From assembly GCA_964439655.1 (NCBI GenBank), contig CAYTOW010000001.1, forward strand, positions 1-29,353: DNA of 29,353 nt, given 5' to 3'. The stretch is from an uncultured Mycoplasmataceae bacterium (lineage in GTDB: Bacteria; Bacillota_I; Bacilli_A; Mycoplasmatales; Metamycoplasmataceae). The notes under the pieces are model-generated. The model was not told the DNA's origin. It did no database searches and saw only the letters and a program-made list of their open reading frames with translations. Position 1 is the stretch's first letter; each line of letters starts with the position of its first letter. A program made the position numbers and the translations under genes. Shown here piece by piece: positions 16,132 through 29,353 of this stretch.

Positions 16132-18408
16132 ATGAGGATAAGAAGTTCGAAAAAAAACGAAGAAAATGCAATAGATATACGAGTAAAAGATTCTACACTT
16201 AAATGGTGAAAACAAACTATTGAAGTATCAGATCTTTTTATAGCGAATAATCTATATAGATGACACATTGAAGAGATTGTATCTCAGGATATTTCTGATT
16301 ATCCTGGTGTTGATAATAGACTTGTTGTTTCTTATTTTGATACTGATGCAGATAAGTTTAAAACTGCAACAGTTACATTTCAATGAGAAAATTCTAAAAT
16401 GGATTCTATTACAGCTTTTACTTCCGCACATAACTTTGAAATAAATAAAGAAATATTTAAATCTCTAAATTTTGCAAACATTAAAAATACTGATGTAACT
16501 TCTAATCATCCAAACGTTCATGTTAAGTCTGTTTCAATAAAAGATTGAAAATTATTTAATAGAACTGTTCTGATTTCTATAATAAGTGTAATTGGTAAAT
16601 CTCTTAAAGATCCAAATGGTTTTGAAACTGAAACTTTTAAAACTATCACTATTGGTTTAGATCAACATGAATTAATAGCTGCTACACTTGAATTAAAAAA
16701 GGAAGAGTCCTTTTTATATTTAAATGATGACCTAGAATTTTATGTTAAACAATTTACTCCTGTCTTAAACGAATATAAGAAGTTTTTTAGGGAAAGTGAA
16801 ATTCAGAAGCTTTTCAAAATAATTAATTCTGTTGAAGTTATTAACCCAAAAATTATGAGTGAAGAAATTGATATCTTCAATAAGAAAGCTACTGCAGGCT
16901 TTAAAGCAAGTATTCTTATTGGTAATGTTGTTAAAAATAATTTTGTTTTTGAATCATACTATGATGCAACCAATTTTAAAAACATCATTATTAAATACAT
17001 TAATGAATTTCCACTTATAGATAAAATTAAAGGTTTTCCAAGAAACGATATTAAGATTAATGATATTTTTAGTCAATGGGATGAAATTAACTTAAACTTA
17101 TGATCAAGTAGAAAAGAAATTAAAGAAATATTTATTAATAATGTAAAAGTTAGAGTTAAGAATATTGATATAAATGCAAATACGATTAATCTTGATGTTG
17201 TCTTTAAAAATGGTGAAGTGATTTTCCAAAATCTTACTTTTACTTTTGAAAAAAGTATCGATGATTATTTAGACGATTCTATAAATCAACATTTAGTTAA
17301 ATTAGTTAATGAAGAAGATTTATTAAAATATCCTAGATATGATTTAGAAATTAGTGATTTTCAAACTGTAGATGATTCTAAATTTAAAATTTTAAATGTT
17401 AAAGTAGAAGGTTATGAAAACAATAAAAATGATTATGTAAATTATAAATTCAATTTTCTATATGATGGCTCTACCGAATTTACTAAAGTATGTAGGATTC
17501 AATTTGCTGAATCTAAGATTTCATATTATTTTAATAAATTAAGTAAAAACTTTATTGATGTTACATTTTTAGAAAAAGTTAATGTTCAATATTATGAACA
17601 CCTAATTAAAAATGCAACCTTTAATGCAAAATGAATATCAATAGATAGTTCTGATTTAGATAAGATTATTTTAACAAAAACTTTTAACGATGAATTTGAA
17701 GTTAAATCTGTTCAGTTTAAAAGAGTTCAATTATCTACTGCAAAAGAAGTTCCTTTTAAAATAACTGCATATTGTGAACATCTAGATAGAGAAATGTTAT
17801 TTAATTTTTCAATTGAAATTAACAATAAAGAAGAATTGAGAAGGTTTAATGAACTAAGTAGTGATGATATTACTTTCGTTAATCCAGCAATAATACATTC
17901 ATATCCTATTCCAATTTTAGATGTCATCGACTTTAAGGTAGATCTTCCATTCAGTATTACTGATGTCTTTGTAAAATATAATGAAAAAATATCTCTTGTA
18001 AAATGTGAATTTGAAATTTCGTATAATGGACTTAAAAAATACCTTAAAAAAGAAATATATTTTGCTAACAATCATCTTAAGAAAGAAGGAAACGAGTTTA
18101 AAAAAGATTTATCAGAATTTAAACGACTTGCCGATAAAGATATTGATATTAAGTATGATCCTGATGCACATGATTATCATGTTCAACAAAAGGTTAATAT
18201 TATCATCCCTAATCATGACTCCTACTTTGTAAATCTTGAAGATTGAAAATTATTACATAAGAAAAATAAAGTTAAATTATACATTGCAGTAATTTTTGGT
18301 GATAAAAAGAGAGAATTCACTAAAATTATTAAGTATAATAATAAATTATCTAGAGATGATATTTTAGAGTGAAAGGAGGCAAATTATGAACCACGTAAAG
18401 GACTATAA
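16132..18408 (+). CDS. Hypothetical beta-strand-rich cytoplasmic protein, 758 aa (alternative start 16099)
   Basis: AGGAG 5 nt before ATG 16132; track ORFs 16855, 17218 and 17794 join in frame 1 through TGA; TAA 18406-18408 overlaps the next gene by 23 nt. Confidence 0.8.
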
Positions 18409-19792
18409 ACAAGATATACATTTTGAAAATAGACTACCCAATAGAGTAAATTCTACTTTAAGTATTAAGAATAGAATTAAGCAAGCTGCTGTTTCATTTG
18501 GAATCTTTATTACTGTTTTGCTTTTTGGCGCATTAATTGGAATCAAATATAACTCCAAACTTCAAGACACTGGTATATCAACTCTTGAAGTTACAATTAT
18601 ATCTTGAAGTTTATTACTCTATGGATTACTAAATACTTTCCTATATTTTAGAACTCCAATAAAGTTTGAAATAACTTGATTACGATTCACGATCCATGTA
18701 TTATCATCAATAATTTTTTCCGCAACAATAATATTGCTTAAACTTAATATTTTTGGTGATATCTTTAATTCAAAATCTAATCCCGAAACTGCTGCTACTG
18801 CTATTAAACTTTATGCTATTATTAACTCATCATTTTCAGCTGTTATATTAATTTACTTGTTAGTAATTGCTATTTTACAAAGAAGACAATATGCTTTACA
18901 ACTTAAAACAACTATTTTAGGAGGGGTATCATTAGCTATTCTGATTGCTGCTCCATTTATGATTCAAAAGTTTTCTAGTAGCTTTAAAATTATCAATGAA
19001 TATATATTTATGACCTCAATATTAATATCGATAGGAGCATTCATATTAGTAATGTCATTATTTGGGATAGTTAAATCATTTGAATCAGCAAAACTAAAAA
19101 ATGTAAATAAATTCCTTGGTACCTCTGTCACAATTACTGGTATTGCTTCAATCCTTGGAGTTGCTATATATAGTATTGCTAATGTAGGAATTGAATTAAA
19201 ACTTCTAACTGCAACCTCATTAATTTTGTCTCTATCCTCATTTGCAATAGTTAATCTATATTTAGTAATTTTTAAGAAATTTAAAAATTCAAATATAAGT
19301 AAATTTAAAAGTTCTGCTATAAAACAAAACTCATTAGAGAATAAATTAATTATTAAAGGATACATAATATTTAATCTTATATTCGCAATAGTATTAATAT
19401 TCTTAGTTAGTAAAACTGAAATTCATAAAACCTATGAGTATTCAGTAATGATTGCCACCTTTCCAATAATACTTATCGGAGTAACACTTCTAATTCTTCA
19501 ATTAAATAATATAATTGTATTTGTTAGATGAGAAATAATTTCGATAGTAGCCAATTTCTTATTAGCATTTCTATTTATATTAATGCAAGGTCTAATGTTT
19601 ACTATTCCCGATAAAGAAATAACACAAAATTGATTAGGTAGAGGAATTTGATTCTTAATTCTTAGTGTATATTTAGTTACAGAATTAGTTACATTATCAA
19701 TTGAAACGGCATCGTTATTTATAGGAAATAGTTCAAAAGGAAGTTTTAAAGATAAGATTAAAAATACAGTAAAAAATAAAGGAAAAAGATAG
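18386..19792 (+). CDS. F1-like ATPase cluster protein 1 (MSC_0624/MMOB1610-like) polytopic membrane protein, 468 aa
   Basis: RBS AAGGAGG; about 12 hydrophobic segments counted by eye; first position of the seven-gene cluster; TAG 19790-19792. Confidence 0.7.
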
Positions 19793-28028: not shown

Positions 28029-29353
28029 TGGCTATTTCTAATATAGATGAAAAAGAAATAAAAGAAACTAAAGATACAAAGGGAACTAAATATACTTTAG
28101 GTAGAATAACAAAAATAAATTCACAACTTATCGAAATTAAGTTTCAAAAGAGTCATGCTCCTAAAATTGGTGCTTTAGTTTTTACAAAACCTCTTGGTTC
28201 TAAATTTAGTGTCTTCTTTGAAGTGGCTAGATCTGATAACGATGGTACTGTTTTTGCTTTTGCTCTCTCAAGTATCGTTGGTATTAAAATTGGCGATATC
28301 GTTAAAACAGATGGTAAAGGTATACGTGTTCCTGCTGGTAAAGAAACATTAGGTAGAGTTATTAACCTTTATGGAAAGCCATATGACTTTGCTAGTGGTG
28401 AAGATATAATCAATGCTAAGACCTACTTAGAAATTTTTGATGCTCCAGATACTGATGTTGACTTTGATGAATCATCTATTGATATTCTTGAGACAGGAAT
28501 CAAAGCAATTGACTTATTACTTCCAATTCCTCGAGGTGGTAAAGTCGGTCTTATTGGTGGTGCCGGTGTTGGTAAAACTGTTGTTACTCAAGAGTTAATT
28601 AACTCTTTCGTTGCTCAACATGATGGACTTTCAATTTTTACCGGTATTGGTGAGCGTACTCGTGAGGGTCATGAACTAGTTTCTGAAGCTAGAGATCTTG
28701 GTATCTTTAATAAAACAGCATTTATCTTTTCTCAAATGAACGAGGTTCCTGGAGCACGTTTCAGAGTTCCATTTTCAGGAGTTAGATTAGCTGAGTATTT
28801 TAGAGATGAATATAAAAAAGATGTTCTGCTTTTTGTTGATAACATCTATAGATTTGTTCAAGCTGGTATGGAGATTTCTTCACTACTACAAAGAATCCCA
28901 TCTGAGGTTGGATATCAACCAACACTTTTCTCTGAAATGGGTTCATTCCAAGAAAGAATATGTAAAAATAAAAATGGTTCAATCACTTCTGTTCAAGCCG
29001 TATATGTTCCTGCCGATGATTTAACTGACCCTTCTGTTGTTGCTTCATTTACTCATTTTGATTCAATTGTTGTTCTTGATAGAGCAATAGCAGCTGAAGG
29101 TATTTATCCTGCTATTAACCACTTAGACTCTACTTCTGACTTCTTATCTGCAAGAACTGTTGGTGATAAGCATTACAAAGTTGCTTCTGATGTTATGGGA
29201 ATATTAGAAAAATATAGACAACTTCAAGACATTATTATTATCTCTGGTCTTGATGGACTTACTGAAGCTGATAGAGAAACATACGAAACAGCAAGAAGAA
29301 TTAGAAACTTCATGTCTCAACCTTTCTTTGTTTCTGAAAGATTTAGTGGTAAA
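28028..29353 (+). CDS. F1-like ATPase beta-like subunit (3'-truncated by window, 442 codons visible)
   Basis: [18 protein letters not shown] (28556-28579), [48 protein letters not shown]; TAATG overlap with alpha. Confidence 0.95.

Follow-up and report, generated by a model that had tools for sequence, protein, structure and literature searches.

The window, a stretch of 29,353 nucleotides that makes up the entire contig C1 of a MAG of an uncultured Mycoplasmataceae bacterium, carries at 18386-29353 a seven-gene cluster that very probably belongs to the Type 2 (G1-type) F1-like X0 ATPases of mycoplasmas, as a divergent member with a short beta. Compared as profiles, each of its proteins is homologous to its counterpart in M. 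mobile MMOB1610-1670 (G1-ATPase, PDB 9io5), and the gene order is identical. A sequence-only reading had proposed either a Type 2-like motor in a lineage from which none was known or an intermediate type, and both the profiles and the trees described below support this proposal. Type 2 clusters have been described in M. mobile and M. pulmonis and also in M. agassizii and M. testudineum; the present MAG, which is 87% complete, is the sole member of its GTDB genus among the genomes sampled.

When open reading frames were called under genetic code 4, the seven co-oriented (+) genes were recovered in the order and at the coordinates reported earlier, intact apart from the beta gene, which is cut by the end of C1. 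The genes are spaced as in an operon: some overlap, by 23, 11, 8, and 1 nt, and others are separated by 9, 108, and 23 nt. The 1-nt overlap, that of the alpha stop with the beta start, bears out the direct coupling of alpha to beta that had been claimed. The last 55 bases of C1 are the reverse-complemented end of contig C5, a unique and reciprocal link, and the join keeps the beta frame open to give a protein of 522 aa. A terminator scan returned seven sites, which is not above chance (4.0 +/- 2.5 in shuffles), and on the + strand the sites from the first gene of the cluster onward lie only inside coding sequence (protein 5, alpha, and beta).

Pfam and NCBIfam profile searches found none of the genes for a, b, c, and delta within the cluster, in agreement with the claim that Fo is absent. 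The cluster shares the alpha3beta3-gamma-epsilon core and the catalytic motifs with the F1Fo ATP synthase (Type 1), whereas it differs in lacking a, b, c, and delta and in its arrangement, with gamma upstream and alpha followed directly by beta. A complete canonical operon (atpBEFHAGDC) was found on contig C14 of the same MAG. An ion-pumping ATPase, in which proteins 1 and 5 would take over the function of Fo and help to sustain the membrane potential, is consistent with the F-type ancestry, with the 12 TM segments of protein 1, and with the hydrolysis direction in which the mycoplasma F1Fo operates (PMC7052211). However, the cluster has no a or c homologue, a complete F1Fo is already encoded on C14, repeated c-like hairpins are not reported for protein 1 (PMC3369863), and protein 5 is mostly extracellular, and we therefore regard such a pump as quite unlikely.

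The alpha-like subunit (26439..28028, +; 529 aa; P-loop GDRKTGKT) scored 631.2 bits as a protein and 627.8 bits on DNA against NCBIfam NF045863 (glide_MMOB1660), thus passing the cut-off of 600, whereas it remained below the cut-offs of MSC_0619 (384.3 bits; cut-off 520) and atpA (390; cut-off 484). Unlike a Type 1 alpha, it gave no match to the Pfam N-terminal beta-barrel (PF02874), and its best PDB match is 9io5_D (383 bits, versus 316 for the best F1 alpha). Its score is the lowest among the 17 genomes that pass NF045863, the others reaching 763-837 bits, and the scores of the subclade to which it belongs (579-683 bits) are the most divergent in the family. A related-locus search of genome contigs with alpha as the sole query gave no match.

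For the beta-like catalytic subunit (28028..29353, +; the first 442 of 522 aa, with the remainder on C5), the score against NF045858, the MMOB1670 family, was 512.7 bits and failed the cut-off of 850, the match being limited to profile positions 224-646 of 705; it also failed MSC_0618 (374.1 bits; cut-off 570). Its best PDB match is the G1-ATPase, and it is about 50% identical to the AtpD of the same genome. A 15-residue motif stretch and VLLFVD are present in beta, and the nucleotide-binding and catalytic motifs of both alpha and beta are intact.

In the alpha tree, the window falls in a 15-row clade composed only of MAGs (99*), which is sister to canonical Type 2 (together 99*), and Type 2 as a whole lies apart from Type 3 (100*) and from Type 1. 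The beta tree has the same topology, with Type 2 as a whole at 100/99*. In both trees, the window lies outside the clade that holds M. mobile and M. pulmonis, in a sister subclade rather than nested within it, and in neither is there nesting inside Type 3. At least 15 protein clusters, drawn from various metagenomes, preserve this architecture, with alpha identities of 47-76%.

The homology of the remaining five proteins to Type 2 is visible only by profile-profile comparison (hhalign): BLASTP and phmmer searches of proteins 1, 2, gamma, 4, and 5 against the M. mobile and M. pulmonis clusters yielded no matches, a difference from canonical Type 2 clusters, whereas the clade profiles of all five matched their Type 2 counterparts. 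Protein 1 (18386..19792, +; 468 aa), which has 12 TM-like segments by hydropathy and occupies the position of MMOB1610, matched Type 2 protein 1 at 70% (E 4e-5, 247 columns) and Type 3 protein 1 at 0.7%. Protein 2 (19802..21364, +; 520 aa; 20% Lys) comprises a globular core resembling GliD (MMOB1620) flanked by Lys-rich tails, whose length sets it apart from canonical Type 2. Its clade profile (A1) had a single PDB match, 9io5_R, the G1-ATPase subunit D (GliD), with an E-value of 4.6e-9, and reached 96% (E 2e-9) against Type 2 and 0.3% against Type 3. GliD, gamma, alpha, and beta thus all have the G1-ATPase as best PDB match.

For the gamma-like subunit (21473..22516, +; 347 aa), which matches Pfam ATP-synt at 28.5 bits, below the gathering score, the clade profile (A2) matched 9io5_G, the G1-ATPase gamma, over its full length (E 1.4e-22, versus 2e-5 for the best F1 gamma), and scored 98.9% against Type 2 and 92.6% against Type 3. 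The reading frame of protein 4 opens at 22413, and a probable ATG at 22506 gives an epsilon-like protein of 200 aa (22506..23108, +) at the position of MMOB1640. Its AlphaFold2 model (pLDDT 85.5) has a beta-sandwich and a helical C-terminus, and without exception the top 37 Foldseek matches of this model in the PDB are epsilon subunits of F-ATPases, called delta in mitochondria (best E 2e-5, TM 0.64); its clade profile reached 54% (E 1e-4) against Type 2 and below 1% against Type 3. Protein 5 (23101..26415, +; 1104 aa), at the position of MMOB1650, is bitopic and has an N-terminal signal or TM segment and two C-terminal TM segments by hydropathy. Only three relatives were found among 1.84 billion representative proteins, and its profile matched Type 2 protein 5 at 98.6% (E 1e-15, 770 columns) and Type 3 protein 5 at 0.7%. 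Among proteins 1, 2, 4, and 5, the Type 2 matches are weakest for proteins 1 and 4, and among the five only the gamma profile also matches Type 3, the others remaining below 1%.

These comparisons bear on a Type 3-like role, in which the ATPase would supply the energy to reset a pair of surface proteins, for instance the antibody-cleaving MIB-MIP system, and not movement. The Type 3 F1-like X0 ATPase is needed for MIB-MIP antibody cleavage, and the two co-occur in 126/126 strains (PMC12994834). Types 2 and 3 have a common gene order and probably a common origin (PMC3369863; PMC12994834), and their gamma profiles are related. Like the MSC_0618-0624 family, the present cluster consists of seven genes in matching order and has no Fo; it likewise encodes F1-like alpha, beta, gamma, and epsilon, a protein 1 with 12 TM segments, and a large protein 5 that has TM segments at its C-terminus. 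In contrast, its proteins 1, 2, 4, and 5 are unrelated to those of Type 3 at the profile level, its alpha stays below the MSC_0619 cut-off and its beta below that of MSC_0618, the cluster belongs to a separate clade in both trees, and the genome has its own Type 3-like cluster on contig C3, itself without a DUF31/MIP gene. Moreover, a PF01732 search found no DUF31/MIP gene anywhere in this MAG, extending the earlier statement that no MIB/MIP genes lie upstream of the cluster, or in M. mobile, whereas the same search was positive in M. pulmonis and in genome G353. A Type 3-like role is thus very unlikely.

The earlier assignment to Type 2 had leaned on protein lengths, which are 468/520/347/200/1104/529/522 aa here and 480/293/336/198/1158/533/784 aa in M. 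mobile. Lengths are not a safe guide, since protein 5 of the Type 3-like C3 cluster likewise has 1104 aa, and the class assignment rests on the profile comparisons instead. Further points in common with the M. mobile system are that the genome also encodes a Type 1 operon as well as a Type 3-like cluster and that no MIP gene accompanies them. The cluster is also not that of an already characterised Type 2 carrier, as seen in its outlying alpha, short beta, extra genes, and isolated genus. Because it neither nests within Type 3 beside MIB-MIP genes nor belongs to a known carrier, the description as Type 2-like or intermediate is a fair one.

One difference from canonical Type 2 lies at the beta N-terminus. 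The beta core begins at residue ~24 here, compared with residues 211-298 in canonical Type 2, and the N-terminus shows no extension and no similarity to the canonical beta N-terminal domains. A 153-aa N-terminal extension in the beta of the relative L016 was considered as a canonical domain and rejected as not homologous. In M. mobile, the beta N-terminal domain recruits phosphoglycerate kinase (PGK) and bridges two hexamers of a twin motor. Since beta lacks this domain here, and with it the PGK-binding and hexamer-bridging contacts, the encoded motor probably does not form a PGK-decorated twin motor, and it may represent a simpler, ancestral form.

The short beta could instead mark a decaying Type 2 remnant that lost its function along with this domain and the leg proteins, as the divergence of alpha in this subclade and the failure to find Gli349 and Gli123 might suggest. 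However, the seven reading frames are intact and tightly packed, the catalytic motifs are preserved, the architecture is conserved across the metagenomic protein clusters noted above, and a short beta is found in genome G369 too. Decay is therefore the least credible of the explanations weighed here.

Upstream of the cluster lie four co-oriented genes. The first (13212..14315, +; 367 aa), a possible member of the unit, belongs to no Pfam or NCBIfam family. The second (14318..15673, +; 451 aa) has no Pfam family either; its place near the cluster is conserved in L013, the nearest relative with a complete cluster, where the gene preceding u is 41% identical (E 7e-16) to its C-terminal 108 aa. 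The third (15694..16023, +) encodes a stand-alone J-domain protein of 109 aa (Pfam DnaJ 47.9 bits, cut-off 27.8) that has the HPD motif. The fourth, u (16099..18408, +), encodes a soluble protein of 769 aa and overlaps the gene for protein 1 by 23 nt. Homologues of u lie directly 5' of protein 1 in L013 (30% identity, E 1e-91), L074, and L073, and weakly in L014 and L075, whereas the u profile (A4) had no match in M. mobile, M. pulmonis, G369, or G353. The AlphaFold model of u was poor (pLDDT 62.7), and a fold search with it gave no match. Together with a downstream protein of ~227 aa (d), u and the J-domain protein are clade-specific and may be the motor's own accessories, a further difference from canonical Type 2, as is the absence of eutD-ack 3' of the cluster.

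These neighbours are also relevant to a machine that would use ATP to export or assemble giant surface proteins, acting in the manner of FliI or a T3SS ATPase with the 12-TM protein 1 as its channel, a role proposed for Types 2 and 3 by Beven et al. The permease-like layout of protein 1, a giant surface-protein gene adjoining the cluster in relatives, and the J-domain protein in the operon, which suggests chaperone-assisted assembly, are in keeping with export. Nevertheless, the M. mobile homologue does not form a secretion pore but an internal array of motors that is static and shows catalytic asymmetry of the rotary type (PMC11864180), the gamma and epsilon rotor subunits are kept, and SecY is encoded in the window. 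Export is accordingly improbable, though less so than the other alternatives to a mechanical motor.

A candidate partner for such a motor is an ORF of >4248 aa on contig C7, cut by the contig end, whose C-terminal modules and anchor are common with Gli521. Among 2961 ORFs searched with a Gli521 C-terminal HMM, the top three were the giant tail of L016 (6e-6), the C7 giant (0.016), and the giant tail of L014 (0.019), with noise from 0.36. Reciprocally, the top two of 2346 ORFs were the Gli521 of M. pulmonis (3.4e-6) and of M. mobile (4.6e-6), the next being at 0.048. All five tails run from shared modules through one TM helix to an RRRK-type tail; the likeness to Gli521 is limited to the last ~300-400 residues, with E-values that individually range from 1e-2 to 1e-6. 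For the remainder of the giant no relative could be detected. A whole-genome search gave no M. mobile match, and the last 1249 residues of the C7 giant had no homologue among 5.8 billion proteins within length limits.

A joint tail profile, which includes the MAG's own sequence, matched 33 of the 141 family genomes. The matches fall in this MAG, in genera g6, g7, g8, and g12, which are genera with a Type 2 alpha, and in g65, where 4/5 genomes match, a Type 2 alpha being present in G407 alone; genera g2, g3, g5, and g9 gave none (0/33, 0/38, 0/15, and 0/6 genomes, respectively). This genus-level co-occurrence may reflect shared ancestry and not functional coupling. The giant gene ends directly 5' of the cluster in L014, L016, and, by spacing, G407. 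In this MAG, it sits on a contig separate from the cluster (C7 versus C1), and the cut end of C7 has no 55-mer link to any other contig.

The search for gli genes that the sequence-only reading had called for returned the Gli521-type C-terminus of the C7 giant and no orthologue of Gli349, Gli123, or Gli42 in the 87% complete MAG, at a sensitivity with which M. mobile Gli521 barely finds its own M. pulmonis orthologue. To our knowledge, all four described Type 2 carriers encode Gli349 and Gli521. A repeat of the Gli349 type occurs in the MAG in a protein of 435 aa. Apparent Gli349 matches on C14, C48, C57, and C2, with E-values as low as 5e-23, were rejected as BspA-type LRR_5 repeats, and an apparent Gli42 match on C24 as FtsZ beside FtsA.

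Overall, a short-beta Type 2 ATPase that does mechanical work at the surface is the best explanation and a reasonably probable one, and the cluster is likely to encode an ATP-driven mechanical surface motor. The alpha3beta3 hexamer would hydrolyse ATP, turning or tilting gamma and epsilon, and proteins 1 and 5 in the membrane would transmit the movement to a surface partner, so that the complex would work mechanically outside the cell instead of synthesising ATP. The likeliest partner would be the giant membrane-anchored protein with the Gli521-type C-terminus. Gliding of the M. mobile type specifically is a possibility that we put forward with less assurance, and the most specific version, an ancestral-type single-hexamer gliding motor with a genetic link to a 'crank' protein of the Gli521 type, in an uncultured deep-sea branch of the Hominis-group family, is tentative.

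We know of no rotary ATPase other than the Type 2 G1-ATPase, described in four species, that has been proposed to power cell locomotion. Routine annotation labels genes such as those found here as ordinary F0F1 subunits (e.g., MCK5866947.1 and MCP4336415.1). A sister clade that has all seven subunits and no beta N-terminal domain is a natural 'minimal' version that would help to tell the parts essential to the motor from those for the twin-motor array. The coupling of motor to Gli521 in M. mobile has so far rested on models, and a giant Gli521-type gene that ends 5' of the cluster in relatives provides independent genomic support for it. If the ancestral, single-hexamer reading is true, the M. 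mobile-type surface machine would have a greater age and a wider distribution than the four known species indicate, and one sub-lineage would have gained the twin motor, the recruitment of PGK, and the N-terminal domain of beta only late.

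In the genome to which the window belongs, an 87% complete metagenome assembly of 678 kb in 86 contigs, the window is the entire contig C1. Read with genetic code 4, it contains the seven-gene series described in the sequence-only reading: p1 (468 aa, 12 hydrophobic segments), p2 (520 aa, soluble, Lys-rich), a gamma-like protein (347 aa), p4 (200 aa, ATG at 22506), p5 (1104 aa, one N-terminal and two C-terminal hydrophobic segments), alpha (529 aa), and beta, whose start overlaps the alpha stop. The genes are tightly spaced, with overlaps or short gaps, and a terminator scan of the window did not exceed chance, the + strand sites from p1 onward lying only within coding sequence. 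The beta reading frame is interrupted by the end of C1, the last 55 bases of which are the reverse-complemented end of contig C5, a unique and reciprocal link. Across this join the frame continues to 522 aa; the C-terminal domain of the joined beta is normal, and its tail is rich in Lys. The catalytic motifs of the ATPase are intact. On C5 (merged coordinates 29599-33428), a 227-aa protein with weak conservation in the clade starts 2 nt after beta and is followed by two further proteins, one of 206 aa with four TM-like segments and one of 768 aa. The operon may extend beyond the window.

The cluster belongs to the Type 2 F1-like X0 ATPases, the type of the M. mobile gliding motor, as a variant with a short beta. 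In trees of alpha (65 rows) and beta (24 rows), genuine F1Fo (Type 1), Type 3 (MSC_0618-0624), and total Type 2 each formed a strongly supported clade, and the window fell within the last, in line with the Type 2-like affinity suggested as a possibility in the sequence-only reading. One Type 2 clade comprises M. mobile, M. pulmonis, and twelve genomes of genus g6, with the metagenomic locus L016 and the genome G369 near its base. The other, which contains the window, consists exclusively of metagenomic sequences. The subclade of the window, with an alpha relative of 76% identity (P0002) and the loci L013, L074, and L073, is the most divergent of this clade, scoring 579-683 bits on the alpha model, compared with 760-836 for the other subclade; these scores indicate that the NCBI model already spans both Type 2 clades. 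GenBank names such alphas F0F1 subunit alpha, and a literature search found no paper describing this clade. The alpha cut-off was passed by 17 of the 398 scored genomes of the order, all within the GTDB family of the present genome, in genera g6, g7, g8, and g12, and in g1 through the present genome alone. For one relative (L014/L015), the source is seawater just above an invertebrate community at a South China Sea cold seep, and a 98%-identical fragment comes from a 'Tenericutes bacterium' assembly.

For alpha, the NCBIfam MMOB1660 model gave 631 bits (cut-off 600), and the Type 3 alpha model (384 bits) and genuine atpA models (390-435 bits) all stayed below their cut-offs. BLASTP and phmmer against six canonical Type 2 clusters returned no subunit other than alpha (39-41% identity) and beta (46-48%). 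Profiles built from the window and five closer metagenomic relatives, set against profiles of canonical Type 2 and of Type 3, extended the comparison to the other five genes, favouring Type 2 over Type 3 for p1 (probability 70% versus <1%), p2 (96% versus <1%), gamma (98.9% versus 92.6%), p4 (54% versus <1%), and p5 (98.6% over 770 columns, E 1e-15, versus <1%). In PDB searches, the profile of p2 matched G1-ATPase subunit D (GliD) alone (E 4.6e-9), the gamma profile matched G1-ATPase gamma (E 1.4e-22; best F1 gamma 2e-5), and G1-ATPase chains topped the lists for alpha and beta. The predicted p4 model (pLDDT 85.5) has an epsilon-like beta-sandwich and helical layout, and its top 37 Foldseek matches are all F-ATPase epsilon/delta subunits. 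For p5, just three relatives were present among 1.84 billion representative proteins. As to the reference loci, the M. mobile Type 2 p2, gamma, and beta (293, 336, and 784 aa) have the same lengths as the PDB 9io5 chains, its genome holds consecutive ORFs of 1128, 3183, 4727, and 356 aa, and the genome taken as M. pulmonis (G156) has an alpha that hardly differs from P0018, a protein of that species. In three g6 clusters (L048, L050, L051), from among 12 g6 species passing the alpha cut-off, p4 (197-216 aa) is followed directly by alpha with no ~1100-aa p5 between, unlike M. mobile, M. pulmonis, and the genome G255, where p5 lies between them.

Compared with canonical Type 2, the window retains a GliD-like core in p2 but with long polybasic tails, and its clade has a short beta without the N-terminal domain. 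The conserved beta core is preceded by 1-24 residues in this clade (54 in L075), 39 in G369, and 211-298 in the canonical clade. L016 (11586-13496) has 153, which are non-homologous to the canonical domain and seem to have been added independently at this position. Most parsimoniously, we infer, the short beta is ancestral and the domain was gained on the branch to M. mobile and M. pulmonis. The M. mobile domain both binds phosphoglycerate kinase and touches the alpha subunit of the adjacent hexamer (PMC11864180). Because it is missing here, a twin motor decorated with phosphoglycerate kinase is unlikely in the same form.

The clade also has its own flanking genes: a ~225-242-aa protein downstream, and, directly upstream of p1, a soluble protein of 725-769 aa with no counterpart found in M. 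mobile, M. pulmonis, G353, or G369. The window additionally encodes, upstream, a J-domain protein and a protein of 451 aa, the second of which is conserved in L013. In addition, valS occurs upstream of the cluster both in the window (5602-8076, at a distance of 10 kb) and in M. mobile (L046:2755-5274, one gene from MMOB1610), which may be remnant synteny or coincidence.

The genome carries three alpha/beta pairs. A canonical operon, atpB-E-F-H-A-G-D-C, is complete on contig C14, each subunit exceeding its own Pfam threshold. A second seven-gene F1-like cluster (C3:2280-12419, - strand) is Type 3-like, as shown by gamma matching MSC_0622 and beta coming closest to MSC_0618 (544 bits of a 570 cut-off); its p5 has the same length as that of the window (1104 aa), and housekeeping genes lie upstream of the cluster. 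No MIB/MIP was found beside it or elsewhere in the genome: a DUF31/MIP search returned nothing, and the identical search picked up three genes in M. pulmonis and another three in G353. It also found none in M. mobile, in agreement with a published report (PMC12994834), and M. mobile is likewise reported to have an orphan Type 3 cluster without MIB/MIP.

Whole-protein searches of the genome with Gli123, Gli349, Gli521, and Gli42 gave nothing convincing, which is weak evidence because the Gli521 query scarcely detects its orthologue in M. pulmonis and returns nothing from the remaining Type 2 genomes. Windowed Gli profiles gave several matches, the majority of which were rejected. The 'Gli349' matches were BspA-type LRR proteins, from a family of large LRR_5 proteins (C14:1-3957, C48:1-3550, C57:138-2477) whose module also occurs at ~2710-2800 of M. 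mobile Gli349. The 'Gli42' match was FtsZ (C24:5154-6326, - strand), reached by the M. mobile and M. pulmonis profile at E 2.5e-11, which suggests that Gli42 belongs, as a divergent member, to the FtsZ/tubulin family. A protein of 435 aa in which no Pfam domain was recognised (C8:2319-3626, + strand) was matched by several Gli349 repeat windows (E down to 4e-11). It carries a repeat for which the 141 family genomes gave one further match, within M. mobile Gli349 (residues ~387-564, E 8e-6). Two leads were kept, this protein and a Gli521-type C-terminus; for Gli349 and Gli123, the other gli genes named in the sequence-only reading, no orthologue was found.

This C-terminus belongs to an ORF of >4248 aa on contig C7, which shares with Gli521 its ending of three 'L-x-N-G-D ... 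V-x-G-L' modules, one TM helix, and an RRRK-type tail. A Gli521 C-terminal HMM ranked the L016 giant tail, the C7 giant, and the L014 giant tail at the top of 2961 ORFs, and the reciprocal HMM placed both Gli521 proteins at the head of 2346. The joint tail profile, which includes the sequence from this genome, matched 33 of the 141 family genomes, which lie in g6, g7, g8, and g12, the genera with Type 2 alpha, and in g65, and include the present genome. About 100 genomes of other genera gave no match. Four of the five g65 genomes matched, Type 2 alpha being present in G407 alone, with its match on the contig carrying the cluster. In L014 (9568 aa) and L016 (7394 aa), and by spacing in G407, the end of the giant gene lies immediately before the ATPase cluster.

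Gliding by this lineage is possible but less likely than not. The searches recovered no leg protein, and beta lacks the N-terminal domain. Judged from its genes, the cluster is most likely an ATP-hydrolysing rotary motor, in which hydrolysis would drive rotary motion and, through it, a mechanical output aimed at the cell surface, with the Gli521-type giant protein as the best candidate partner.
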